DNA of 23,745 nt from an uncultured Nitrososphaerales archaeon (GCA_963709405.1 CAVPXM010000007.1:1-23745); one strand, 5' to 3'. Positions 2,753-18,721 are shown, numbered from the stretch's first letter. The notes: generated by a model not told the origin, from the sequence alone. Made by a program: numbers and translations.

Positions 2753-3521
2753 ATGATTATGGGTAATGATGCGAACAACATTTTAAAGCATAGGATGGTC
2801 GATACTGAAACACTTGTATCTCAAACCCAGAATAGAATTTGGAGTGCCTTGAAAAGACACTATCAATACGATTCAACATTAAAACCCGGACAAAATTTCC
2901 TCCTAAAGCATGTGAATTCAAAAATTCCATTAGTAATCATGTATGCGGATCTAGTTGGCTCAACTAATATGAGTATGACCCTACCCATAGATAAAGTGGT
3001 AACTATAATAAGAGCATTTTCATACGAAATATCTTCAATAGTTCAGAGTTATAACGGTTATGTATTAAGGTAACGTAGGAGATGCTGTTATTGCATTCTT
3101 CTCATCGGACTATAATAAATTACTAGCATGTGATAAAACAGTACAATGTGCTCAATCCATAATAACCGTAATCAAGAATGGAATTAATCCTATATTGAAT
3201 CAATATGATTACCCTGAACTTAGTGTCAAGATAGGAATTGATGAAGGTGAAAATGTAATTGTGCAATATGGACATGACAAAGTCTCCCCTATTGATGTTC
3301 TTGGCTACTGCATGAGTATAGCGGCGAAAATAACTTCATTAACCTATTCAAACACGATTATGATAGGTGACGATGTATATAATTCACTTCATCCACAAAT
3401 GAAGTCTAAATTCAAGGAGATTAAATACAATACTGAGGAATGGAAATACACTAATAGACAAACTGGTCAAGTTTACAAGTCTTCATGCAATGTAGTTTCG
3501 TCAATATCATTATCTTTTTAA
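2753..3521 (+). pseudogene. Class III adenylate/guanylate cyclase domain protein, frameshifted
   Basis: Motifs MYADLVGST, GYVL[KY]VGDAVIAFF (shift near 3070), KIGIDEG and DVLGYCMSIAAKI. The true start may be upstream (about 2655). Confidence 0.9.
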
Positions 3522-3599
3522 TGTATTTATTTAAGACATACTATGGTGAAAGATACTGCTAGAAGAGACTAAGACAACATGTTAGTATAGATTGAGTAG

Positions 3600-3848
3600 A
3601 TGCCAACAGCATATATTTTAGTAAACTGCACCTTAGGTTCTGAGGAGAAAATTATTGTATGACAGATCTAATTTGAATGATGTAAAGGAGGTAAGAGGGA
3701 CTTACGGTGTTCACGATGTATTTGTTAAAGTAAAATCAGATAATACCGAAATAATGAATCATACCATAACAAATAAGATAAGAAATATACAGGCATTACA
3801 TCCACTGTAACTTTGGTTGTCATCGAAGAACAAGGTGGAAAGGAATAA
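3600..3848 (+). pseudogene. Stand-alone Lrp/AsnC ligand-binding domain protein, frameshifted (absent from ORF track)
   Basis: MPTAYILVNCTLGSEEKII / SNLNDVKEVRGTYGVHDVFVKVKSDNTEIMNHTITNKIRNI / GITSTVTLVVIEEQGGKE*, with shifts near 3660 and 3790. Confidence 0.85.
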
Positions 3849-3860
3849 TGTAACTAATTT

Positions 3861-4067
3861 TTACTCTTTTCTTAACTTCTCCTTTTCCTCTTGTTTTATT
3901 CTCTTTATTTCATATATTATCAATCCTGTACTTACCGCAATGACAATCCAACCGGATGTTCCAATTATTACATATTGTTCATATATCGGAATGAATAAGA
4001 GGAGGGGTGGAGTGACTGCACCTATCCACCATATAATAATTAAGATTTGAACATTAATTCGGTACAT
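3861..4067 (-). CDS. Small membrane protein (two predicted helices, charged tail)
   Basis: 68-aa ATG ORF with two hydrophobic stretches and a KRIKQEEKEKLRKE tail. Confidence 0.7.
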   Translation of the reverse strand: MYRINVQILIIIWWIGAVTPPLLLFIPIYEQYVIIGTSGWIVIAVSTGLIIYEIKRIKQEEKEKLRKE

Positions 4068-4671
4068 AAAACATTATTATCCTATATAATATTATTATTC
4101 GATGAATGATGGATTTGCCTAAAGTCAGTACGACCTGATATATTAATTTGCACATATTGTCGTCATTCATTATGATGTCCTGTCTGTAATCTTCTCATTT
4201 AGGTAGTTAAAGACTTTGAATTTTAAGGCATATGATTTGTAGGATTAATTGTAAAATGAGTGTAGCATCTGTGAGATGTATGAAGACAAAAAGGCAAAGT
4301 ATAGCTAATCCTTTCTCCTAACAAATTTTATTTTGTACGCATTTCATTATTTTCAAAAATAAGATAAATTAGCATTGTCTTTATACAAGCGATCAGCGTA
4401 ATTAAGCGGCAGATCTACTGTTGAATCTTCTTTCTATCTATTGGATTTACCCATTCGACCATTCTCAGCTCGAGTTATAGTATATAGTCTGGCAGATGCG
4501 ATCAGTAATAGATGTTAAAATAGTGTTATGTGTGCAATTACATGGAATTACTCTTAATATGTTCTTTAAACTACAGCATAATGCTCTTTTCAAGCACTTT
4601 TCTGCATGTCTCCCCCTCCTCTTTGGGGTCCTCCTTCAATAAATACGTACAATCATTTGTAATCATAGAGA

Positions 4672-4965
4672 ATGATGGCATTTAAAACGCTTAGACGCAG
4701 TAAGAAACACTACACGAGACAATCATCAATATCATTACCTTACAATTCCTATCCAATGACTATTACAAGTACTGTTTATTCTAATAATGATAAGATGAGA
4801 AGATCGAGTCCAGATATTCCGTTTAAAGTTTTAAGACTAAACCCAAATAAGCCAATAATGTTTCTGAAAATTAGAAACGGATCAAATCAATTTGATATTA
4901 TCGATAACCTAAAAGATAGCGATGAGGATTGTGTTACTCTGATTGTCCCATCCGTCAAATTATAA
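4672..4965 (+). CDS. Hypothetical protein or fragment
   Basis: 97-aa ORF only; no motif recognised. Confidence 0.25.
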   Translation: MMAFKTLRRSKKHYTRQSSISLPYNSYPMTITSTVYSNNDKMRRSSPDIPFKVLRLNPNKPIMFLKIRNGSNQFDIIDNLKDSDEDCVTLIVPSVKL

Positions 4966-5252
4966 TAATAATTTCTAATTGAATTGATACTCTGATGGAT
5001 ATTTAATTTCAATTGCTGAATTAAGCCATTGCCATGTAGTGTAATGTTATGCGATATTGGACATCTCATCATTTAAAAGTTGTCATCGTTAGTTAATATT
5101 AAATTTTGCTCTATCTACCCGTTCTATATCCTATAATTTTTAGTTCATATTTCAACTTTAGTAGTATATTAGTAAATCTTACTTTGTATTTGCGATTCAT
5201 ACTTCGATTTTTGAATTTTGCAATGAGGAAAACAGTGGCATCTTTAGATTTA

Positions 5253-6137
5253 GAGCCTATCCCAAAATTATCCTCCTGTATATAGTAATGCAACAACCCA
5301 AACATACTAACGCAAAATAGTTTTCTATCTTCTTCTCATATCTAAGAGTTTTCTGAGCCTGTTATGCCAGGAATTAGTTCTTTCAACAACCCATCTTCTT
5401 CTTGTATTATGCTTATCGCTCTTTGTTATTGATTGTTCTCCTCTATGTCGAATATGTGGTAAGTATCCTTTCTTGATAACACCATTCTCGATCTCTAGAA
5501 AGTCATATCCTTTATCAAGACAGAGGTTCTGTTTCTCTTTATTAATCTTATAAGACGGTCTTTTAACTACGATATTATCCAGTGTGTTTATGCAGCCTTC
5601 ATATCATGTGGTAACCAGCCGCAGTTATAACAACGGATAATGGAATACCTTGTCCATCAGTTAATACATGACGTTTTGTTCCTAACTTACCTCTGTCTGT
5701 AGGATTAGTGCCAGTCATTTCCCCCCTAAATGTGCCTTTATACATACACTATCAAGTGATTGCCATCTCCAACGAATACCTACTACATCATCATACACTA
5801 TTAGGAGTCTAGTCCATAATTTTTTAAATACCTTCAATATTGACCATTGTTGGAATCGTCTATTGCAGGTTGATCCAGAGCCATATTCCTTGGGCAACAT
5901 CTTCCATTGACACCCAGTTCTTAAGACATATAGAATACCATCCAGTATCTTCCTAAATGATACCGCTGGACGTCCTATGGTATTATTTGGTTTTTCAGGT
6001 GGAAGTATCAACCTTATCTCATCCCATAACTCATCTGGGATTCTCTTGACAGTTGGAATGTACTTGATTCTGTCGTAAGCGACATCAATGAACAGACATT
6101 CTCAAGCTATATGTCTATCTATTTTTGGGATGGGTTC
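5253..6137 (-). mobile_element. IS5-family insertion sequence (IS1031/IS427-like), 885 bp
   Basis: TIRs GAGCCTATCCCAAAA (5253-5267) and the reverse complement of 6123-6137, GAACCCATCCCAAAA (13/15). TTA flanks both ends (5250-5252, 6138-6140). Confidence 0.9.
5257..6075 (-). pseudogene. IS5-family transposase, several frameshifts
   Basis: IPDELWDEIRLILPP..GRP..ILYVLRTGCQWKMLP..GSGSTCNRRFQQW..SLDS. After a G-run shift near 5722: TGTNPTDRGKLGTKRHVLTDGQGIP..LCLDKGYD..RRWVVERTNSWHNRLRKL..RRIILG*. Start approximate. Confidence 0.9.
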
Positions 6138-6340
6138 TTAGTAGAATAAGAATATGTGGGAATCGGAATTAGGTATGAAGTAGCGAACTTTTTGTTAAAT
6201 GCCATTCTATTGTTGGTCTGTTTGAATTCTAAAACAACTAAAATTGCCTACTTATTTATTATACATCGAAGCTAATCTAAAGAAAGATAATATCGTTCTG
6301 TTAATTTTTCCTAAACGTCTGAATTGCGGAGTATATTCAA

Positions 6341-6763
6341 TCATGTAAAAGCACTTTCGTTTTCTAATATAAATGGTAATACCTTATTTTGAATAGTATA
6401 AGCAACGTTAGAATCCAAATCAAATGATAAGAGTAGATAAAGCTTGTTTACATCATCTTTTTTATCAATCATTATTGGAATTGTCGCACGAATCATTTTT
6501 TGTCACTTTCCTATAGAATATTGTAATTTACCAATCTTTGATTCATAATCTTCTCTGGTGGGAGCACGAAGAACAGCTTTCATAGCATAATCTGAAGTTT
6601 CTTTCTCTGTCAGCAAAGGAATCAAGTTTTCTCTATAAGAAGTTGTTCTTAGATTTCCAAGTTTATTTGCAATACCTGCAAATCTAATAGAAGTGTCCAA
6701 TTCTTGTATTTGTTTGCAAACGTCTTCCAAAGCCGATACAGGCACATTATTTATTAGTTTCAT
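6341..6763 (-). pseudogene. DUF6659-like (roadblock/profilin-like) thaumarchaeal protein, frameshifted
   Basis: CKQIQELDTSIRFAGIANKLG..YRENLIPLLTEKETSDYA..IGKLQYSIGK, continuing in other frames as KMIRATIP and YLLLSFDLDS..IQNKVLPFILENESAFT*. Confidence 0.7.
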
Positions 6764-7046
6764 TCTCTTATAACAATAACGATAATCCTAGAATGTGTCC
6801 AGTTTTGTCTAAATCCTGATTATGAAATATTGATGCCCAATCTTCTTCATTTCATCAAAAAAGGAACAATTGAATTTGATCCCATAAACTATATTGTACT
6901 TGAAAATAATGATATAATGATGAATCTTTTCCGCTCTAATTTATTATGAAAAATGTTATTTAAAACTAACCCAAGTAGACGGTTGCTCGAGTATTTTTCA
7001 TTTTTATATTGAGACGAGGATTAAATATTTGAATTTAATTTTTATA

Positions 7047-7457
7047 CTAGGAAGCTTGTGGCGTTACAGATCCTGATGATGGGGCTGGTTGTGATGATGG
7101 GGCTGGTTGTGATGATGGGGCTGGTTGTGATGATGGGGCTGGTTGTGATGATGGGGCTGGTTGTGATGATGGGGCTGGTTGTGATGATGATCCAGAAGAG
7201 TTTGATGTTGGGGTTGACGGGGTGCTTTTTGGCAATCCACAAATTTCAGATTCCGTCTGATTGACGAAATTGAGTCTAGGATTATCTGACCTACAGAACT
7301 GCTTTACTTGTTCTGGAGTCAGTCCATGCGAATCCTGACCTTGTTGAGCTTTAACCTGAGTTGTAGTTATTATAAAGAGAGCTAATGTCATCATACTAAG
7401 TTGCAAAATATAACTAAGGTGTATTTTATCCATCTTTGTTAATTGAAAGACATCCAT
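7047..7457 (-). CDS. Predicted secreted protein with a two-Cys domain and (SSQPAP)6 tail
   Basis: Signal-like segment ending VKA-QQ, Cys pair in QFCRSD..EICGLP, Ser/Pro-rich repeat C-terminus. Confidence 0.8.
   Translation of the reverse strand: MDVFQLTKMDKIHLSYILQLSMMTLALFIITTTQVKAQQGQDSHGLTPEQVKQFCRSDNPRLNFVNQTESEICGLPKSTPSTPTSNSSGSSSQPAPSSQPAPSSQPAPSSQPAPSSQPAPSSQPAPSSGSVTPQAS
7074..7189. repeat. Perfect 18-bp tandem repeat, 6 copies plus a partial copy
   Basis: Unit TGATGATGGGGCTGGTTG starting at 7074, 7092, 7110, 7128, 7146 and 7164. Confidence 0.97.
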
Positions 7458-8207: not shown

Positions 8208-8921
8208 GGCCCTGTTAACTTAGAGATAATTCCACCTTCTTAGATCGTCAAATTTAGTACTAGATTTTATAACGCTATTGTGCATAAATACGAACAGAAT
8301 GAGCCATTTGTGAACGTGTCTAAGATTGCATAATCCAGCCATCATACATGGATAGTAATCATCAAATGCCTCAGTTCTACCCTTTAGATATTCTATCGTT
8401 CTTTCAACTATACTCTTTTCGTATGGCGAATGTAATCTATGCTTTAGTCCTAATGATATACATACTTCCGGATACCATGTTCCATCATCACTATAAACCA
8501 CGTGTTTGCAATAAATCTTGATTAACGATCTTAGGAATGATTCAGCTACAATCATATTCCTGTGTCTTGAGATGTAAACTCCAAGAATTTGTCTGTGTAT
8601 TGGTTCTACGGCAACCCATAACCAAGCCTGGTCAGGACCAATCTGCACCATGGTTTCATCAATTAGAAAAGCTGCCACTCTTTTACAACAGTATAGACGT
8701 CTGGGATTGAATCTCTGAACCCATTTCCATATTGCAACATGACTCCTTCCTCTCTCTTTCCAAATAGTTGGATTGCCTTAGATGTATTTATGAAACTTAG
8801 GCCTAGAAAATATAAGTATAATGCATACAATATTGTCTCCGCGGATGTTCTCTCACGTTCAAATAAATTCATTGAATATGAGAGAATGTTTGCAGCTATA
8901 GCTTTATCGCTAAGTTAACAG
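8208..8921 (-). mobile_element. IS6-family insertion sequence, right end clipped
   Basis: Left end GGCCCTGTTAACTTAGAGATAA (8208-8229). The right copy TTATCGCTAAGTTAACAG (8904-8921) matches 17/18 but lacks the terminal GGCC. Confidence 0.85.
8220..8872 (-). pseudogene. IS6-family DDE transposase, frameshifted
   Basis: YALYLYFLGLS, FLIDETMVQIG..WLWVAVEP, VYSDDGTWY and KSIVERTIEYLKGRTEAFDDYYPC across ORFs 8663-8872 and 8220-8678. Confidence 0.92.
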
Positions 8922-10096
8922 TTATGTAAACATGTAGATGCTTTCTCCATGTAAACTGTTTATACTAGTTTTGCCTCTATGTTTTTATTATAATCACATG
9001 CCCAATCAGATACTGCTTTACCTATATCACGTTCATTTTGAAAGGTGGAATTGTTTATTGCTTGTCGTTGCATCCATAGCCATCTTACCTCTATCAGATT
9101 GAGCTCGGGTGATCTGGTGGGAAGAAATACAAGGTGTATCCTTGGATGATATTTGGATAATACTGCTTTCACCTTGTTTGATTTATGTATCGATACGTTA
9201 TCAAGTATCAGAAATATCTGCTTGATACTATCGTCATACTTTTGGTCCATTCTTTTGATAAAATCTAAAAACTGTTTTCCGGTTTTCTTTTTGTAGCCAT
9301 GCGTCCACATTTGATCATTGGTATAATCGTATATACCAAACACGTTTAGAATTCCCTTTGTCTTTTGAGCTTTGGATACCTTAGACTGTGTAGAGGACCA
9401 AGATGTACCGCCATATGTTTTTGCTACTATCGGTCCTTTCTCATCCTCGTAGAGTAGTACTGAGTCAGAAGACAGGTTACTGTATCTTAGTTCTTCAATT
9501 CTCTTTTTTTCAAATGATATTCAGGATCTAGGCTGTATCCCAGAGTAATCTTTGACTGCCTATATTTTATTCCGTGTTTTAGGAGGATATTTCTAACCTC
9601 GGTGTGGCTGATAGCATCTACAAGGCTCATCTCCTTGGAGACAAATCCTGCTAGTACTCTTAATGACCATGTGGAAAATGGTAATCCATAATCTTTTCTT
9701 GAATTTTTGGTTGCTATCTCCACAATCTTATTCTCCATATCGTCAGATATTTTGATTGGTTTATGCTTGTGTATTTTTGATGCTATTCCATCTATACCTT
9801 TTTCATTGAAACGATGAATCCATTTTCTTATGTTGCTATCATGATGGTTAGTTGCCTTCCTTATTTCAGGAACTGCGTATCCATCATCCTTAAGAAGAAT
9901 AATCTTTGCACGGTATCCAGATTCTCTATCCTCAAGTATGCTATCATGTAACCTATTCTTTTCATTATTTGTAAGCAATCTGAGGAATGTATCCCTCATG
10001 CTGATAATTTAAAAGAGAGTAAGCTAAAGGTGTTATGGTATCTGAACGAGCACTGTTAGTTTAGAGAAGAGCATTACATATTCTTTACATAACTGT
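8918..10096 (-). mobile_element. IS630-family insertion sequence (copy A)
   Basis: Perfect 16-bp inverted repeat TTAACAGTTATGTAAA (8915-8930 and 10084-10099), which includes TA at 8916-8917 and 10097-10098. Confidence 0.88.
8960..9999 (-). CDS. IS630 transposase, HTH plus DDE, split at an A7G run (about 9503-9510; possible programmed -1 frameshift)
   Basis: HTH ORF 9487-9999. The second frame reads LLYEDEKGP..FGIYD..ILDNVSIH..FLPTRSPELNLIEVRW. Confidence 0.9.
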
Positions 10097-10199
10097 TAAG
10101 ATAGATAAGCCTAATATAGAGGCGTGCTTTCTGCGGGCATGTATTATTAAGTTAATTACTGGACTAAAAGAACGTCTTCAAATAAGAAATATCTACAGA

Positions 10200-10601
10200 T
10201 TGTTGTCTAATTATTATCCCTGGCTTAACCACATTATAAGTATGATTAAACCTCGCAAATCACAGAAATTACCTCCTAGGTGTATTGTGCATGAGAGATA
10301 TGAAAGATTTTTTAGATTGCTTGGTGCAAACAACAATCAAGCCAAAGCACTAAGCGTAGCTCAGATTTATGGGTTGTTGGATGACCCGTATGACAAAAAC
10401 ATTAAGCGAGCTGTTAGTGAATATCTTAAAATAGATCAAGAAAGTTTAATGGAATTACTGGATATTGGTGTAATGAATTGCTCATGGATTCATGGTGCAA
10501 TACAGCAAATGAGATCTACGATAGCAGACCAACAAAGGTCTCACTATTCTCCTACCACCGATGTTGAGGAGGAGATTACTAAGGATCTCAATATAGTATA
10601 A
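10200..10601 (+). CDS. Hypothetical protein
   Basis: Intact 133-aa ORF convergent with the Rep-like gene; the start may be the later ATG (MIKPRK). Confidence 0.65.
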   Translation: MLSNYYPWLNHIISMIKPRKSQKLPPRCIVHERYERFFRLLGANNNQAKALSVAQIYGLLDDPYDKNIKRAVSEYLKIDQESLMELLDIGVMNCSWIHGAIQQMRSTIADQQRSHYSPTTDVEEEITKDLNIV

Positions 10602-10663
10602 GAGGGATTCGCTTCATTCCATTTATGAGTAGAGGCGCACAAAAAACATACATTCTCATCTGA

Positions 10664-11545
10664 TCAGGCACCCAACTTTTCATGTATAGCTGCATCTAAC
10701 CTAACACCAGGATACTCTTGACGTTCTTTTCTAATTCTAATTCCATCTTTCATATCCTTTGAGTAAATGCGAAGTAATGCGTGTTCTCCGTCCTCCCACG
10801 TCATCTCGAACTTCTCGCCTGCATACTCACTTAAAGAATCTGTACCAAAGTGCCACATTGTTACGATCCAAGAGTTATGGTTTGGAATTTGAATTTGAGG
10901 CAATGGTGATATCGTATGCGGGCAGCATGTTACTGATGCTAATAGCCTTTCCTCTACTGATGTCAGTATATTTGACAAGCGGATAAGACCTTCATGATCA
11001 ACAACTACTGGTTTCATTGAACATGATATAATGACACTGACAGTATCAGAGTGGTGTACGACTGTCTTTGCCTCCATATCACACATCCGAATAGGCAATA
11101 GAGAAATATCTTTACTTAATTCATTAGGTATTAGCTCGGGATGGATACGAAGTATTGTTGACCAAATCCCTTCAGTTTTAAATCTAAGGCGGATATCATG
11201 TACAGAGTGTCTTTCCGATGGCAAGGTATCGACAAATGACACAGATGACAGTTGGGGGACCACCGTACGGTTATCTGTCATCCCTGTTCTAGGTTTAGTA
11301 AAGTTTACTCCTTTTAAGCTGTAAAATGCAGGACCGGAGTAATACTCTAATTGTACGTAACCATTTTTCATAAGTGTTGAAATCTTGTTCCTAAATGTTC
11401 CGTGCGTCATGCTATATTTTTTACCATCTACTTCAAAGCTTAGAAAATCGCGAAAACAAAATGGTCTTTTCTCTATTAGCACTAGTCTTTGCATATGCAT
11501 CTTCATTGGATGATCGAACTTTACCTTACCCACTATCTCATTCAC
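10664..11545 (-). CDS. Winged-helix protein with Rep_trans-like motifs; candidate rolling-circle replication initiator
   Basis: Longest intact ORF. wHTH-like HGTFRNKISTLMKNGYVQLEYYSGPAFYSLKG, then VHDIRLRF, TMWHFGTD, LLRIYSK and IRIRKERQ in the order of Rep_trans motifs. The ORF is secure; the function is inferred. Confidence 0.6.
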   Translation of the reverse strand: MNEIVGKVKFDHPMKMHMQRLVLIEKRPFCFRDFLSFEVDGKKYSMTHGTFRNKISTLMKNGYVQLEYYSGPAFYSLKGVNFTKPRTGMTDNRTVVPQLSSVSFVDTLPSERHSVHDIRLRFKTEGIWSTILRIHPELIPNELSKDISLLPIRMCDMEAKTVVHHSDTVSVIISCSMKPVVVDHEGLIRLSNILTSVEERLLASVTCCPHTISPLPQIQIPNHNSWIVTMWHFGTDSLSEYAGEKFEMTWEDGEHALLRIYSKDMKDGIRIRKERQEYPGVRLDAAIHEKLGA

Positions 11546-11581
11546 CAGATTGCTGAATACCAGTAAATGTCATTGTCATCG

Positions 11582-12432
11582 TTAGTTTGCTGATTTTAGA
11601 TTCTCAGCATCTACTATTCGAACTTCAGTTATCTCTTCATTTATAAGATCAACCTTCGCAGCGAATAAAACTATAGAGACTCCTTTGTTCCTACTATAAG
11701 ATGAACTCATATGATGACGTAAGTCTTCAAATGAAACTTGGAATTGAACATCGAAGAATTTCCTCATATTTTGGTTGACTTCTTTCTGACTTGAAGACAT
11801 CAACTTCGATTTTAAATCTTTGAGCTGTGTTTGTAGCATAGAGTTCTCCGCAGACTTGGACGTTACTTCTAACTGGAGCCTTTCAATTTTGGTTTCAAGC
11901 TCTCTGATTTTGCTCTGTTCAGATAATTGTTGGTCTGTATTAATTAGTGAATTAGATTTCCTTACTACATCTTCTAATTCATTATCTGCATGAAAATTCT
12001 CAGTATATTTGACCTCTTCATTAGCAGATCCTTCAGTATTTACGGCATTGTTATTATTCGAGTCAGAAGCTGGTTCAACAACTGTATTTCCATGAGTGTC
12101 GACCAGCAATTGTGGGATAGCCTCTTGCTCCTGTCTAGAGAACGAAAAATTTTCGTTCTTCTCTACCTTTTTAGGCTTGGTCTTCTTCTTCCACTTATCT
12201 GGATAATGTAGTTCGATAATTCGAGTTGAGACAAGTCCTTGCGCTATTTCTTCACGCAACGCATCTTAATTTCTTCACATATGCTCTCACTATCTGAAAC
12301 CTTACGCTCGAATGCCTGGCCTAATTTAATAATCAGATCTTTGCGCTTGCCTAACATCGCCCTAAATTCTTTTTTGACTTCCTCAATGACTGTCTGTAGA
12401 TCTAAATTGTCATTTTCGATTGCGTCGCTCAT
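11582..12432 (-). pseudogene. Coiled-coil hypothetical protein, one frameshift near 12263
   Basis: ORFs 12244-12432 and 11582-12259 join as SICEEIK[NA]LREEIAQG with one added A. Basic KWKKKTKPKK patch and heptad region KIRELETKIERLQLE. Confidence 0.75.
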
Positions 12433-12452
12433 ATCTAAATTCTCCTCCTCTT

Positions 12453-12692
12453 TTATCTAGAGTGATTTTGATTGGTGTGATTTTCGTTCTTCATCCATGC
12501 TTTAGATAATGGGGTTTCTAGTTGTTCTATTCTAACTATGTCATCTTCATGTAGCCTGTAAGCATGAGAACATTCATGATTTAATTCTGTCAAAGCCTGT
12601 TTTAGTTCAGCTATTTCTTTTTGTTTCTTCTGACAATTGATACAGTTCGATTCATTATCTCTGTATGTTGTATTAGAATCGCTATATCTCAT
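12453..12692 (-). CDS. Small CxxC plus coiled-coil hypothetical protein
   Basis: 79 aa, CINC followed by a heptad pattern; 2-bp spacing to the upstream gene. Confidence 0.7.
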   Translation of the reverse strand: MRYSDSNTTYRDNESNCINCQKKQKEIAELKQALTELNHECSHAYRLHEDDIVRIEQLETPLSKAWMKNENHTNQNHSR

Positions 12693-12694
12693 GC

Positions 12695-12922
12695 TTATTC
12701 TGACTCCTGAAATTTAGTAACACAGTCGCTGCAAACTAATAGAGAGATTACTCCAAGGGGTCCAGCTCTTACTTTGATCTTATCGGTAGCTTTAGCATAG
12801 CATCCTGCCGTTTCACATATAATATTAAGCTCTGAATTGTTCTGATTACTTTCTATGGAAGTAAATCTTTTACTCAATACGAGTATGATCCGCACACTAA
12901 AAATAGGTAAATGTTTTTTCAT
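12695..12922 (-). CDS. Small zinc-finger-like protein
   Basis: CETAGC...CSDC Cys pattern. The true start is probably downstream of 12922. Confidence 0.7.
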   Translation of the reverse strand: MKKHLPIFSVRIILVLSKRFTSIESNQNNSELNIICETAGCYAKATDKIKVRAGPLGVISLLVCSDCVTKFQESE

Positions 12923-12927
12923 ATTTT

Positions 12928-13728
12928 ATGGCTAAAGATGTGAAAAACCCTTCTCAACTAAGTGAGCTCGAAAATCATTTCGTTGATGTTTACATTATGA
13001 ATTGGAACCTGATCGCCTATATTTTGAGGACACAGTACGCTGATCCGAAAGATTTTGCAGAAAAGATACTCATAAAGACTATCAGGTCTAAGACTAAGAC
13101 CGCCGAAAGCTTCTTATTTTTGTACGGATATAGAGAACCAACTGGCATTTATACACCTTCTAAGTTAAATGAAATTCTTAAAAGAGATCTCGGAATATTC
13201 CATAGCGATTCATCCAATACAGAGCCATTTTTGCGCCCAAATATTATAACACAGGTTCTACAGAAGTTGGAACGATATGAAATATATCATAATGTAAGAG
13301 GGAAAAGAGAACTGAAACGTAAAAGAATAGGGCCAGAAAAATCAGCTTCGAGCTTCAAACGATTAGGTGGGAGGCCTTCAGCTTACATGATTTCAGACAT
13401 CTACTCTAAATCAAACGAATTTATCAGCAATCCAGATATAAGGAATTTGATACACAAAAAACTTATTGATCATAAAATTGGCCTATTTGTATTGAAATAT
13501 ATGTCTATGGCAGTTTTTTATTCATTTAAGATAGATAAAGAGGCAGCTTCCAAAATACTTCTAATAGTGAGTCCTCCACCCGCTAGCGTAGATCTATCTA
13601 ACATCCAGTCTAAATTCGACGAAACCGCTTCTCTTGATGAGATCAAATTGGAAGGGCTTGCTGAACAAAATGCCAAATTTATATTAGATAGTCGTTGTAT
13701 TTTTCAGCTACTGGTTTATTCGGACTAA
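12928..13728 (+). CDS. Hypothetical protein, possible winged-helix regulator
   Basis: Intact 266-aa ORF divergent from the operon; PNIITQVLQKLERYEIY helix followed by a basic wing ending GGRPSAY. Confidence 0.7.
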   Translation: MAKDVKNPSQLSELENHFVDVYIMNWNLIAYILRTQYADPKDFAEKILIKTIRSKTKTAESFLFLYGYREPTGIYTPSKLNEILKRDLGIFHSDSSNTEPFLRPNIITQVLQKLERYEIYHNVRGKRELKRKRIGPEKSASSFKRLGGRPSAYMISDIYSKSNEFISNPDIRNLIHKKLIDHKIGLFVLKYMSMAVFYSFKIDKEAASKILLIVSPPPASVDLSNIQSKFDETASLDEIKLEGLAEQNAKFILDSRCIFQLLVYSD

Positions 13729-13845
13729 TACTGCATTCCTTATAACCTGTAATAAGCCAGCGGTGCCATAGTACTGTACTAAATCCAAGCATTTGCAAAT
13801 GGTGCCGCAGATATGATATAGATAAGTATTCAAGATTCAAATAAA

Positions 13846-14042
13846 TTAGCCGACATTCCTCTTCGTTAATATCGCTGGCTTAACATGCACCAATTTGGGA
13901 TTATGCTGTATCATTGAGATAATCTGATTGAATCGCTGATTAGTCTCATCACGGATAGCTTGAATGTCCTGTTCATATTTTTGCTTCATGGCCTGTATCT
14001 CTCTATCCTTTTCAGATAATTTTGATTCAATGCTTTTGCCTC
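13846..14042 (-). pseudogene. C-terminal coiled-coil tail of a probable tyrosine integrase, truncated by IS630
   Basis: SKLSEKDREIQAMKQKYEQDIQAIRDETNQRFNQIISMIQHNPKLVHVKP resembles tails I recall from Nitrososphaeraceae integrases. No catalytic residues remain, so the call is from recall only. Confidence 0.55.
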
Positions 14043-14573
14043 TACCAATTAAGATAAGTATACTCACATATTATTGATGGAATTGTCATATTCCTCGTAC
14101 AGGAAGAGCTATAGCTTTGTTCATTGATCTGCTTTCCTGAATGAGTCTTGACTCTTAGTAGAGGAGAATTAGAAACTTGGTACAGGAAGGAATCACGAGC
14201 GGGACTAAAGGAGAGGCTATTACTTGTTCTCAAAGTCGAAGGTGAAGGAATGATTCCAGCTCGTGTTGCAAAGGAGCTGCACAGAAGCAGAACATGGACT
14301 TCTGATTGGCTTGCAAGATATCGTAAGGAAGGTATTAACGGACTAGAGAATAGGCCTAAGAGTGGTAGGCCCTCAAAGCTACCTAAAGAAGTTGCTCTTA
14401 AGGTAAGGAAGAAACTGAAGGAAGGAAAACAGGGCTGGACTACACAACAGGTAAATGAAATGATAGTAAAAGAAGGAAATGTACACTACCATCAAATCTA
14501 TATCTATACATTGCTTCATAAGTGGGGATTCAAACAGAAGGTACCTAGGAAAGTGCACGTTAATACTGTACCA

Positions 14574-15571
14574 TGCTTTGTTGCGCGATTCATTATGTTG
14601 TAAGTGATATTTATTTGACCACTCTGCATTTAGCTACCCAATAATAATTATTCTGGCATGATTGACTGGCCTTCGTATAATCATTCATTAGTAAGACGTG
14701 GCCAAGTACTCTTAGATTTTGATGTACTTGATGGATGGGATCATGAATTATCTCAAATGAATCTTGGTAAGGTTGGTGAACCTTACGACTATCCAGATTC
14801 CTTTATTAAGATCCTAGGTTACATGAGAGCTTATTTTCATCTACCATATAGACAGACAGAGGGCGTAGTTATAGCACATGCAAGTACAAAGGTTCCAGGT
14901 ATACCACATTATAGTACCATTAGTAGACGCATAAACAGGCTAGAGATCAAAATCAATGAAAAATTAGGAAATGATATTGTCATTGCTATAGACAGTACCG
15001 GTATTAAAGTAGCTAATCGAGGTGAATGGATCGGCATAAATGGCATGTTAGGAAAGGATATCTAAAGATACATGTAGCAGTTGACATCAAGAAGAAAAGA
15101 ATCCTGTCTTTGGAGGTAACTAGTGAAGAGGTACATGATGGTAGGATGCTAAGCAAGCTAGTAGACAATGCTTCTGAGAATAATCATGTGAAGGGCATGT
15201 TAGCAGATGGTATGTACGACAGCAATAACAATTTTAGATACCTGTCAAAGAACCATATTAAACCAGGTATAAAGACAAGAAGTAATTCCAAGGTAAGGTC
15301 AACTAACTGTCATGCTAGGAATATGTCTGTAGTAAAACAACAAGCAAATCTCAAAAGATGGAAGCGTAGCGTGAGCTATGGACACAGGTGGATGGCAGAA
15401 ACAGCATTCTCTTCAATTAAAAGAATGTTTGGTGAACATGTAACAGCTAGAAAATTTCCTAATATGGTAAAGGAAATCTTCCTAAAGGCAACTCTGTATA
15501 ACATGTTCAATCGAATGACCTAACTAACGGCTTGCATAACCTAAAATCCTAATGAATCATGCAACAGAGCA
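14574..15571 (+). mobile_element. IS5-family insertion sequence (ISH1/IS903-like), 998 bp
   Basis: 22-bp TIRs TGCTTTGTTGCGCGATTCATTA vs TGCTCTGTTGCATGATTCATTA (19/22). 8-bp target duplication CTGTACCA at 14566-14573 and 15572-15579. Confidence 0.95.
14658..15523 (+). pseudogene. IS5-family transposase, single 1-nt frameshift near 15031
   Basis: WPSYNHSLVRRG, LPYRQTEG, IAIDSTGIKVANRGEW / RHKWHVRKGYLKIHVAVD, LADGMYDS, YGHRWMAETAFSSIKRMFGE. Confidence 0.93.
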
Positions 15572-16685
15572 CTGTACCACAAAAGGAGAAAAAGCAGTTT
15601 AAAAAAGAGCACAGAAAATACTAGATTGTCTACCGAAGGACTTTACTGTAGTATCACTGGATGAATCATTCTTCTTCTTTGACAGCCTTGTTAGAAAAGT
15701 ATGGATCTATAAAGATTCCAGACCTGTAGTTACAATAACAGGCTCGCACAGAAATTTTTGTATGTTTGGAGCTATTAGTCTTGAAGGAAAGCAGTTATTC
15801 AGACAGTTTGAAAAGTTTGATGAGGATACATTCTATGAATTCCTAAAACAGATACATTACAAATTCCCAAAATGTTATTTATTCTTAGATAAGGCACCTC
15901 AACACTATAAATCTCATAAAATAAAAAAGTACTTTGAAGAACATAAGGATAGTCTAATACCAATCTATCATCCAACAGCATCACCAGAGTTTATGGTGCT
16001 GGAAGAATGCTGGAATATATCCAAAAATGATTTGTTAGTATTAGCATATTATTCGGCATTTGCAGAATTTAGAATAAGGTTAGGACAGTACTTTAGGACC
16101 AAACATTTCAATCTAAATATGAGAAATTACCTCACTAGGAATATGTCAGAGAACTTATCTTAATTGGTGTAGGTATACCAAATACGATACCGGTGCAAAT
16201 AAGTAAAATGGATATCCCTTTTCTGTCATTTTTGAGTCTACAATCGAAAAAATGAAAGATCTTGTAGGTCAATTCAACCAATGAATTTGATATATTATTA
16301 AAAAGTTGCTAATATCGATTAACAGGAACAAAAAAGAATAAGTCAATATCACGGAACTATATTTGTTAGGTACACTCATCGAAGCAAATTAGGATAATGG
16401 AATGTAGATTTTAGTTCCTAAGTTTGTCCATCATTATGGTTGATTGTTATTGAAATAATAACATCATCATTGAAAACACTGAATAATTTGTATCAAGCAG
16501 CTAACTATATGTTATTATTTGATACTTTGAATATTCAATAGGTATCAAATATTCATCTGCTTTGAATAATAGAAAGTCGAAAATTTTAGAAATTAGTCCA
16601 CGGCACATAAATAGCACATTGACAAAAAGAGATTGTAGTATGAACTTTGGTAATAGAATAGGACCAAGTTTTAATTGAAAATACA

Positions 16686-17049
16686 TTGTTAGCCGCTGCT
16701 AGGTGCGATAGAGAATTAAAGGGATACTATCCTCTTAAGAATATTCAAAATTACAAGTTAAACTATCAATCGATAGATTCAATTAATAGACTTTTTTGGA
16801 AAATGAAGCCAGGAGATTGCTAAAAGAACTAAAGCTATTAATCGCAATAGAGCAGAAACGATAACAGTCGGTTTATGTATAATAACTACATTGATGTTTA
16901 AACTAGCTTTCGAAGAGGTTACTGTAAGTTCAAGTGGACTCAGAGAGGGAATACTATCATCATTTCTGTCGCTAAGAGATATAAAAAATAATACGAATAA
17001 TAGAAAAACGATAATACCACCAACATTGAATGTACAGCAACTCAGCTAA
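16686..17049 (+). pseudogene. ppx: 3' part of Ppx/GppA-family exopolyphosphatase (absent from ORF track)
   Basis: Manual translation gives YYPLKNIQNYKLNYQSIDSINRLF / EIAKRTKAINRNRAETITVGLCIITTLMFKLAFEEVTVSSSGLREGILSSFL, containing the GLREG motif. Degraded sequence may extend upstream to about 16460. Confidence 0.8.
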
Positions 17050-17206: not shown

Positions 17207-17604
17207 GATTGCATTCCACGAATAGGAATACGAATACGTGTATGGACGAAGCCCTCTAATTAACAAAGGACTTAGTGAGTCCTGAGCGTAAGTAACTAGA
17301 ATGAATAACCTAAGATCCAACTCTTTTCATCTTGGACCCACATTTTGGACACGCAGCTTCCTTATGTTGTGTTCCACAGGCCATACAATAGTACTTCAAT
17401 GATGAGCCATTACTAGTATTAAGCATAGAAGACATTGAGCCACCTATTGCATTCATTCGTTTAAGCATTATCCTTCGCATATACATATTTAACAAAATGA
17501 ATACTCCAAATATGACACCTAAGGATATCGGAAATGGCAATAAGATAGAGAACGTAAGACTTATTCCAAAGAATATTCCTAGCCAAACTAATTGGTTAAG
17601 TAGG

Positions 17605-18641
17605 TGTTGTACTTGCACAGATAGGTTACATTATTAAGTACCTACATGAGTTACACTTTGCTGCTTAGTTCTTATACTTATGGTGGATGTAATTAATCTT
17701 TGTAGAAACATCTCTGATGGAGTAAGACCATTTATGCCTCCATGTTCTCTAGTTTCATTGTACGCTTTTATAAACATATCGTATCTTAGCTTACCATCAT
17801 CTATGTTTGGTATATCTTCTATTGCTAGGAACTCATTTTTCACTATCTTGTTATATGCTTCTATTTTCCCTTGTAGCTGTGGGTAAGAATGAATTTGGTA
17901 TTTGCTTATCCTTTATCTGATTGTGTACAAGGAAATGTCTGAACATTTTGGATGTAAACTGCTTTCCATTGTCATGCATTACTCTATCAGGTTTACCATT
18001 GATCACTATCCAATCCTCTAATACATTCAGAATATCCACTGACCTCTTTCTTTTAGACCATCTGCTTGCTACTTTTCTTGAACAATCATCCAGACAACTG
18101 ATTATGTAATTCCTTTGACTAGAATTACTCAGATAGAAAGGGCCAAGGATATCCATCTGTACCATCTCATTTGGATGCTTCATGACAAACCGTTTGTAAG
18201 TTCTTGTTTTGGCCTTACACTTGAGGATATTAAGCCCATGTCTCTTTAGTATCTTGTATATAGTTCTGGTACTTAACGAGATTCCAACAACCTTTCTTAA
18301 TCTAAACTTGATCCTGCTACATCCAAACCTTTTGGTTAGTCGTAGATCAAGTATTGTCTCTTCTATTTCTGATGTTACCTTTCTATATGGAGTATTATGA
18401 GGTCTTTTAGAGTTATCTAGAAGTCCTTCTATCCCTTTCTGTTTGTATCTGTTATTCCACTTGTAGTAAGTCTTTCTGGATGTACCGTATCTTTTACAAA
18501 TATTAGATACTGTATCGCCAGTCCATTCTTTCTCATGTATTAGATTAAACCTTGTTCTGATTTCTATATGGATTCACTTCCTGCCAGAAGTGTAACCCAT
18601 GTCTGTAAGCTAAATTGTCACCTATGTTAGGAAGTACAACA
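17605..18641 (-). mobile_element. IS481-family insertion sequence, 1037 bp
   Basis: TGT...ACA ends with long imperfect TIRs beginning TGTTGTACTT. 6-bp target duplication AGTAGG at 17599-17604 and 18642-18647. Confidence 0.93.
17634..18577 (-). pseudogene. IS481-family transposase (HTH plus rve/DDE), frameshifted
   Basis: ICKRYGTSRKTYYKWNNRY..SKRPH is in frame with VQMDILGP..CLDDCSR..HDNGKQF; the tail is YNETREHGGINGLTP. Shifts lie just after the GTG start and near 17880. Confidence 0.92.
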
Positions 18642-18721
18642 AGTAGGATTTGCTTGTTATTGTTGATACTCATTCTTGACTCACACTCATTAATACTTTT
18701 GTTGTACAACTATTACCAGAA

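Follow-up and report, generated by a model that had tools for sequence, protein, structure and literature searches.

A decaying integrative element of soil Nitrososphaeraceae and its candidate TBP-fold rolling-circle initiator

We analysed contig C7 of an uncultured Nitrososphaerales archaeon (GCA_963709405.1, CAVPXM010000007.1:1-23745), the whole of which (23,745 nt) is referred to as the window and provides all positions given below. The contig belongs to a genome of 4.83 Mb in 100 contigs (completeness 91%). Between positions 10664 and 14067 lies a compact module that comprises a tight minus-strand operon, a divergent gene and the tail of an integrase gene, with IS630-type insertion sequences (IS) on both sides, while the rest of the window consists mostly of broken genes and insertion sequences. 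The original prediction had described a cryptic integrative plasmid-like module at this place. Our analysis indicates that the segment 10600-14044 is very probably the decaying, immobilised remnant of a small integrative element (~4.5-6 kb) that belongs to soil Nitrososphaeraceae and to the kind termed cryptic integrated element. The best overall explanation, which we regard as reasonably probable, combines this decaying element with a rolling-circle initiator, encoded by a 293-aa gene of the operon.

Open reading frame (ORF) calling returned gaps of 2, 20 and 36 bp in the minus-strand operon, the same values as predicted, together with a 16-bp overlap between ORFs of 62 and 225 aa. The three longest of the 91 window ORFs (>=50 aa) encode 293, 266 and 225 aa and the next 170 aa, which agrees with the claim that the module holds the longest ORFs of the window; the 293-, 266-, 79- and 75-aa genes are intact. 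The proposed zinc-finger and coiled-coil genes are present as ORFs, but those of 62 and 225 aa are a single 283-aa gene interrupted by a 1-nt frameshift, because contigs of two soil metagenome runs (X1 and X4, see below) carry an extra T after position 12263 that restores one 283-aa frame. Fused coiled-coil genes are also found in other copies of the module on contigs C73 and C49 of the same genome (264-aa and 225-aa versions), and the zinc ribbon is kept at the same position in C49, C73, C12 and many other loci. No module ORF had a significant match in Pfam or PHROGs, and the same scans recognised no structural or conjugation genes in or near the module, as had been predicted for capsid and conjugation genes. 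The predicted bounds (10100..14042) hold from 10600 onwards, but not for the segment 10100-10600 with its 133-aa ORF, which is not conserved: by tblastn it matches only C7 and a near-identical twin on contig C21, and it has no significant family match in Pfam or PHROGs. No tRNA gene was found within the window, and a promoter and terminator scan with bacterial consensus sequences gave nothing above shuffled controls.

Features of the module and its flanks in the 23,745-nt window
Feature	Position	Strand	Remarks
IS630-type element A	8913..10100	-	left flank, outside module; transposase ORFs (8960-9343, 9487-9999) frameshifted
133-aa ORF	10200..10601	+	absent from other element copies; outside module
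Remnant of conserved junction 3' of 293-aa gene	10600..10663	-	start of '293b' ORF, TTG(T/C)GCGCC motif
293-aa gene	10664..11545	-	winged helix and TBP-fold domain; putative rolling-circle initiator
DNA element in linker-coding part of 293-aa gene	11222..11293	-	candidate origin/nick or recombination site
Coiled-coil gene	11582..12432	-	frameshifted into 62-aa (12244-12432) and 225-aa (11582-12259) ORFs; intact form 283 aa
79-aa CxxC and coiled-coil protein gene	12453..12692	-	same-position homologues in C49, C73, L023, L089, L122
75-aa four-cysteine Zn-ribbon gene	12695..12922	-	first of operon; C-x4-C ... C-x2-C
266-aa divergent gene	12928..13728	+	variable slot of element; no assigned family
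Tyrosine integrase C-terminal tail	13846..14044	-	~residues 340-405 of 405-aa form; catalytic domain missing
73-aa converging ORF	13846-14067	-	contains integrase tail
IS630-type element B	14044-14574 and 15571-16177	+	split by IS5-like element 14574-15571; truncates integrase

The predicted integrase-like tail was identified as the end of a tyrosine recombinase. Contig C49 encodes an intact tyrosine recombinase of 405 aa (PF00589, E 9.3e-13), and the 73-aa ORF can be aligned with its residues 332-405; the last 74 residues of the C49 protein are 73% identical to the ORF, and the window tail is 73-80% identical to the integrase tails of C49 and C73. The intact C49 protein also carries a coiled-coil tail. 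The window fragment does not contain the catalytic domain and active-site Tyr of PF00589 and is, judged by its sequence, a non-functional remnant of a member of this family. Homology to the integrase stops at 14044, where the IS630-type repeat starts, whereas a soil contig of run X4 continues beyond 14044 into the integrase codons FLDYTALEA without any IS630. An IS630-type insertion has thus cut the integrase to its last ~65 residues, and the predicted immobilisation by IS630 is upheld. The missing part of the integrase was not found by tblastn on the far side of the insertion sequence, and a deletion or rearrangement therefore accompanied the insertion.

Both flanks show the domain matches of the IS630 family (PF13358, E 5.2e-24 and 6.5e-13; HTH_32, ~5e-13), and both transposases are broken. 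Pieces with DDE_3 and helix-turn-helix (HTH) matches lie at 8960-9999 on the left and at 14148-14603/15762-16163 on the right. Element A (DDE_3, 5.2e-24; HTH_32, 5.3e-13) is present in at least eight copies at 99% identity in the genome and is missing from the near-identical C21 version of the locus; the downstream end of the module is lost beside it, and homology to other copies ends there. The region of element B matches HTH_32, DDE_3, DDE_Tnp_1_5 and DDE_Tnp_1. Its form without the IS5-like insert, with a joint from 14564 to 15571, was present in all four soil runs from which contigs were compared (X1-X4).

The comparison of contigs also revealed near-identical versions of the locus. C7 is a mosaic of versions, 98-99.8% identical, of the contig ends C48:1-9385 and C21:308613-314560, from which it differs by the insertion sequences present and, in the case of C21, by 1.8 kb that C21 has lost. 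The mosaic points to strain variants collapsed in one metagenome-assembled genome (MAG), or to a recent segmental duplication. In the C21 version of the module the 1.8-kb deletion spans window positions 11000-12813 and is accompanied by further frameshifts; C21 is therefore not an independent copy. Near-identical DNA was found in 20 of 24 listed public soil metagenome runs (17 studies), with at least half of the sampled words in five runs; none of the 24 was an RNA data set. The deleted form of the module occurs in run X2 and the full form in X1, X3 and X4. An X1 contig joins 13638 to 16179, so that the integrase tail and the nested insertion sequences are lost, apparently by an IS-adjacent deletion. 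There was no circularising joint on the contigs of runs X1-X4, in which, as contigs only, circular junctions are not readable. The window copy is a dead remnant, of interest only as a well-preserved example.

Further divergent copies or fragments were identified in the genome on contigs C49, C73, C12, C17, C44, C6 and C79 (at least five outside the window). In C49 the genes are ordered as in the window, beside the intact 405-aa integrase; C73 keeps this order too, but its integrase carries an internal deletion and its 293-aa gene an insertion sequence. The order of integrase, variable divergent gene or genes, zinc ribbon, coiled coils and 293-aa gene recurs in other MAGs and in metagenomes, and the intact element can be described as a tyrosine integrase, a variable divergent slot and an operon for a zinc ribbon, two coiled-coil proteins and the 293-aa protein. 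Searches with the 293-aa protein gave 517 homologues at E<=0.001 out of 1053 candidates, with 965 cluster representatives of the family at 50% identity, 285 relatives on metagenome contigs and 66 loci in species-representative genomes. The genome titles of all 66 loci name Nitrososphaeraceae, Nitrososphaerales, Nitrosocosmicus, Nitrosopolaris or Thermoproteota MAGs. Matches were present in 79 of 201 sampled genomes of the taxonomic family (including the unpublished genome G035), in 47 of 114 high-quality genomes and in 14 of 18 genera, often several per genome and often with stops. As sampled from sequence collections, the module family is confined to Nitrososphaeraceae, multi-copy and patchy.

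The linkage of this family to integrases was assessed in 39 testable loci, i.e. those among 103 loci with an N-terminus-containing homologue that had at least 3.5 kb of upstream sequence. The Pfam scan covered the 170 upstream ORFs of at least 140 aa in these 39 loci, ORFs of 110-139 aa being dropped. A same-strand tyrosine recombinase was found within 6 kb upstream in 25 loci, 22 by a Phage_integrase or integrase-SAM match and three (L023, L115, L119) by tblastn only; two more (L049, L071) have an uncertain integrase. In the remaining 12 (L033, L034, L046, L047, L058, L080, L083, L084, L121, L133, L152 and L154) no integrase was detectable.

In many related loci, a full-length but different integrase lies just upstream of a truncated tail of the window type (aa ~287-404), as in L023 (3655-5176), L025, L026, L031, L066, L097, L107, L115 and L116. 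An integrase beside an old tail suggests repeated integrase replacement or nested insertion, with breakpoints that vary among loci. Solitary pieces of this integrase type were also seen in unrelated contexts: an N-terminal one (residues 1 to ~324; C26:19262-20298) that adjoins a gene for a secreted repeat protein, and a C-terminal one (~304-399; C43:9214-9528) after carboxylase and CBS-domain genes. Separate N-terminal (C26) and C-terminal (C43, L023 and others) fragments had raised the idea of an SSV-type split integrase, which was ruled out by the scattered breakpoints (aa 287, 295, 301, 304, 334 and 340) and by the intact gene in C49.

The original prediction had proposed that homologous loci be compared for gene order, full-length integrases, tRNA-linked att repeats and circular forms. 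The conserved order (C49, C73 and loci of other MAGs and metagenomes) and the full-length integrases (C49 and the 25 linked loci) support an integrative element. For tRNA-linked att repeats only the first half held: a tRNA gene lies directly upstream in 5 of 61 loci, all from distant sub-families and none from the close clade of the window. These are tRNA-Ile in L045, where an integrase follows, and in L034 and L133, which have none, and tRNA-Met in L047 and L059. Several results speak against the element interpretation. Beyond the 12 testable loci without an integrase, there were no convincing att direct repeats in C49 or L023 and no tRNA-derived repeats of at least 12 nt downstream in L045, L047 or L059; none of 146 related loci was circular as judged by terminal overlaps of 15-200 nt, and a viral collection gave 40 pattern matches and no relatives. 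An att core common to both element ends was searched for and not found. In the window the ends have been destroyed by insertion sequences; among the copies, homology breaks within tens of bases past a GC-rich motif just 3' of the stop codon of the 293-aa gene, and the TTG(T/C)GCGCC motif of this junction is rare (50 occurrences in 4.8 Mb, both strands).

The loci without integrase and the missing att repeats would fit ordinary chromosomal DNA, in which the cluster is a host operon specific to the lineage and its proximity to integrase debris and insertion sequences is a coincidence. L034 and L133 in particular place the homologue beside core genes (NAD kinase, PIN). Both loci, however, sit at the same tRNA-Ile where L045 has an integrase together with the homologue, and a fixed core synteny is further weakened by the multi-copy, fragmentary and patchy distribution of the family, by flanks that vary among copies and by the integrase linkage in 25 of 39 loci. 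We consider a host operon very improbable. The predicted small integrative replicon family of ammonia oxidisers is supported as an element family, but not as regards a circular form or membership in a replication (Rep) protein family by sequence.

The claim of a Rep-like gene was addressed by modelling the 293-aa protein. A first model from a shallow alignment (A1; pLDDT 67) gave as its Foldseek match a Roco COR domain at a TM of 0.18, which was judged meaningless, and was replaced by an AlphaFold2 model from a 65-sequence alignment (A2; pLDDT 87, pTM 0.64). In the latter, a winged helix (6-81) is connected through a disordered linker (86-99) to a C-terminal domain (108-293), itself formed by two beta-sheet/helix halves. 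The winged helix resembles those of many regulators (Z up to 8.8). Over its whole length, the C-terminal domain matches the TATA-binding protein (TBP) 2z8u_B (Z 8.4, 142 residues, root-mean-square deviation 3.6), with TBPs in general at Z 7-8.4 and 6-10% identity. A weaker match is to RepDE, an initiator of rolling-circle replication (4cwc_A: Z 6.2 over 145 residues, model 108-291 to chain 39-227; 4cwe_A: Z 6.4), and Foldseek likewise returned TBP (E 2.5e-4) and 4cij_B (4.7e-3). In language-model features of residues 100-293, the Rep_trans and Phage_CRI clusters were nearest (0.89-0.90), a borderline value that serves as a lead only.

Column counts over 65 diverse members, down to 28% identity, showed that Y261, D236, R272, C175 and W226 are invariant (65/65). 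H116, H232 and K263 are each kept in 64 of 65, position 274 is Glu in 62 and Asp in three, and position 117 is Asp in 46 and Asn in 19. From residue alternation in the predicted strands, we infer that D117, H232/D236, R259/Y261/K263 and R272/E274 would lie on the same sheet face. A saddle that only binds DNA would not be expected to carry a polar set of residues with this catalytic look. The chain order Asp, Asp, Tyr, Glu is that of the active-site residues described for RepDE, D46, D142, Y191 and E214 (PMC13107129). Linear mapping of the aligned ranges would put Y261 at about RepDE Y191, and by eye the family has RIYSK and RKE where RepC homologues have RIYNK and RVE.

A distant 361-aa paralogue in the same genome shares the motifs H-N-I-H, C-S-x-x-P, R-x-Y-x-K and R-x-E (by eye) and differs in its N-terminal region and length. 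It was detected by the family profile over the TBP-fold domain (E 5.6e-13) and not by tblastn. Its locus (L169, C73:99000-108532) is an element of the same kind: at 3108-6945, an integrase of 353 aa comes first, then a transposase gene that has inserted there, a Cys-rich gene of 57 aa and lastly the paralogue.

These data are consistent with a rolling-circle initiator that would form a third TBP-fold Rep family, and we favour this assignment by a small degree. Fold and conserved residues support the predicted Rep-like gene, but membership in any Rep family at the level of sequence does not follow. The points that weigh against an initiator come first from the structure: TBPs outscore RepDE by fold (Z 8.4 versus 6.2), values of Z 6-8 are a common range for the tool so that fold alone proves little, and the placement of Y261 at Y191 comes from linear mapping of the aligned ranges. 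Sequence searches add to them. Pfam gave nothing for the 293-aa protein (E<=0.1) or for any of the 65 members (E<=1), PF02486 and PF25227 each had no match genome-wide at E<=1 (positive controls B. subtilis and Haloferax volcanii, respectively), and a sequence-profile search of the PDB had none at E<=10. An hhalign comparison with 12 RepC homologues, an alignment of almost no diversity, gave a Prob of 0.24. Finally, L041, from a Nitrososphaeraceae MAG, has an ORF of Prim-Pol type (L041:4243-4740, PF09250, E 5e-9) that follows an integrase and is the immediate upstream neighbour of the 293-aa homologue, so that another replication protein can accompany it.

The same observations would suit a non-catalytic DNA-binding regulator or architectural protein, with replication carried out by the host or by another gene of the element. 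By fold, the protein is most similar to TBPs, whose role is confined to DNA binding, and sequence searches detect no Rep family. The homologue in L041 is accompanied by a Prim-Pol ORF, and one source labels a homologue 'ArsR family regulator'; Krupovic et al. 2019 (PMC6563490) also mention that winged helix-turn-helix (wHTH) proteins of small thaumarchaeal elements may be regulators. A purely binding role is, however, hard to square with the invariant Tyr, Asp and Arg and the near-invariant His, His, Lys and Glu on the strands of the sheet, unlike in TBP. Neither the 293-aa protein nor the 65 members match the TBP family in Pfam, RepDE aligns over the whole domain too, and among named language-model clusters Rep_trans and Phage_CRI come closest. 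We regard a regulator as unlikely, though it is the strongest competitor of the initiator.

The DNA that encodes the disordered linker has features of its own. It contains an inverted repeat of 7 bp, whose arms lie at 11239-11251 and 11275-11287 of the window, with an inner palindrome, ACCGTACGGT, as well as two to three direct repeats TGTCAT(CAG) and the palindrome TTATCGATA. These features are kept in all 28 family genes extracted. In pairs among 19 distinct intact genes, the share of identical codons where the amino acid is equal was 63% overall, 91% at residues 85-95 and 86% at residues 90-99, i.e. synonymous change is suppressed in the linker DNA. A second, truncated copy of the gene ('293b'), with the TBP-fold domain only and all conserved motifs, comes directly after the full gene and overlaps it by ATGA in at least a dozen loci (for example C73:35366-35791, L023:8839-9100, L095:2427-2993 and L146:10060-10764); the window keeps only its first codons. 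In '293b' and other truncated paralogues (at least ten loci), homology sets in at one common position immediately 3' of the inner palindrome. A SWIM-type zinc-finger gene was seen after '293b' in L146, L025 and L026.

In pT181-family plasmids the double-strand origin is reported to lie within the rep gene, where it occupies a stretch that is dispensable at the protein level (PMC5703833). Because of this precedent, and of the repeats, the codon conservation and the common truncation point, we tentatively propose an origin or nick site inside the rep gene, in the linker DNA. Alternatively, the same element may be an att core or a recombination hot spot of another kind.

The common starting point of the truncated paralogues in at least ten loci, at the linker hairpin, could instead mark a site of strand transfer. 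The TBP-fold protein would then be a nickase or relaxase for transfer or recombination, MOBT-like or akin to a Rep-type transposase. The loss of homology among copies tens of bases beyond the GC-rich motif after the stop codon would fit such a role, and Rep_trans relatives are described as relaxases in bacteria (PMC6499999, PMC7563843). Yet the scans detected no conjugation genes in the element or close to it, the usual partner is an integrase that already accounts for integration, and a literature search found no archaeal precedent for such relaxases. This makes a relaxase improbable.

If the 293-aa protein is an initiator, its winged helix would bind the DNA of the element and its TBP-fold domain would nick one strand via Tyr261, with a metal held by Asp236, Glu274 and Asp/Asn117 and/or His116/His232. 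From this nick, the excised circle would be copied by rolling-circle replication, as with Rep_trans (RepC/RepD) and Rep-Arvir (RepSNJ2). More speculatively, the double-strand origin would lie within the rep gene, in the disordered-linker DNA. The full proposal, in which proteins with a winged helix and a TBP fold form a third TBP-fold initiator family beside Rep_trans and Rep-Arvir, with the origin in rep and with nicking that drives the formation of 'TBP-only' copies, is possible but speculative.

The divergent gene was less informative. The proposed 266-aa HTH-like regulator is indeed divergent from the operon and converges on the integrase tail, but it has no detectable family or confident fold: there was no Pfam or PHROGs match and no usable Atlas match, the Atlas model being poor, and its 16 relatives are all unnamed. 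The label of a regulator is therefore unsupported. In other copies (C73 and other loci) the divergent slot holds a ribbon-helix-helix (RHH) gene and two winged-helix-like genes.

Other features of the window lie outside the module. A repeat of rve type (~1.05 kb, 17597-18646) with broken transposase ORFs recurs on more than ten contigs at 90-99.6% identity, and a 165-bp end piece of it lies just downstream of the C49 element copy. A Ppx/GppA-like gene fragment was found at 16891-17049; C73 has an intact 519-aa Ppx/GppA gene on the other strand, a few kb from its element copy. The ORF at 7047-7457 combines a signal-like start with a tandem array of seven PSSQPA repeats, and the repeat is open in other frames too.

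Soil ammonia-oxidising archaea drive nitrification. To our knowledge, there is no genetic system for them, and no replication protein has been assigned to the small elements integrated in their genomes. The 293-aa family could fill this gap, being large, unnamed, integrase-linked and endowed with a confident TBP-fold model, and the main interest lies in the protein family and its embedded DNA element rather than in the window copy. If the family does consist of rolling-circle initiators, TBP-fold Reps would extend to a third lineage, in a new archaeal phylum-level group. Should the full proposal with its origin in rep hold, no self-replicating plasmids of soil ammonia-oxidising archaea would be commoner than these elements with an integrase and a Rep. 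The protein and its ~70-bp candidate origin would then also be a potential minimal replicon for shuttle vectors and genetic tools.

Compared by description, the element resembles the cryptic integrated elements (CIE) of Thaumarchaeota such as NitUzo-E2 (PMC6563490), which are small and carry a tyrosine integrase, wHTH and hypothetical genes. As in those elements, the host is thaumarchaeal, no capsid or conjugation genes are present, att sites are short or undetectable and transposons have inserted in some copies (PMC6563490). The element described here encodes an integrase (intact in the sister copy C49, as a tail only in the window), and no virion or conjugation genes were recognised. The published survey describes no signature gene and leaves the replication protein of the small CIE open (PMC6563490), whereas a winged-helix and TBP-fold protein would serve as the signature gene here. 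A literature search found no description of the 293-aa family. TBP itself, the best structural match, shares the pseudo-two-fold beta-sheet saddle; it differs from the 293-aa domain, which has an invariant Tyr/Asp/His/Glu/Arg/Lys set, a fused winged helix, a mobile-element context and only 6-10% identity.

Among replication initiators, Rep_trans (PF02486; RepC, RepD and RepDE of pT181-type plasmids, RepSTK1; 4cwc, 4cwe, 4cij) has in common with the modelled 293-aa domain the TBP-like fold, a Tyr in R-I-Y-x-K, an R-x-E strand, the same succession of acidic residues along the chain, a DNA-binding domain as a further part of the protein and possibly an origin inside a dispensable stretch of the rep coding region. 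Rep_trans differs in that no sequence or profile similarity exists, while the 293-aa protein has a shorter catalytic domain, an N-terminal winged helix, a place in an archaeal integrative element and an activity that is putative. Archaeal counterparts are the Rep-Arvir (DUF7845) proteins, TBP-fold rolling-circle initiators with a wHTH published in April 2026 (Wang et al. 2026, PMC13107129). Against these, the 293-aa protein has no PF25227 match, its domain order is reversed (winged helix 6-81 and TBP fold 108-293, versus catalytic domain first), its catalytic domain is ~185 aa rather than ~300 aa, and it is without the third C-terminal domain described there (PMC13107129). The lineage differs as well, the terms Nitroso and Thaumarch not occurring in the main text of that article (PMC13107129). 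What Rep-Arvir and RepSNJ2 share with the protein described here is a TBP-fold putative nuclease joined to a wHTH in an archaeal mobile-element protein, an absolutely conserved Tyr and acidic residues, an association with integrases or integrative elements, and a link to Rep_trans by structure only (PMC13107129).

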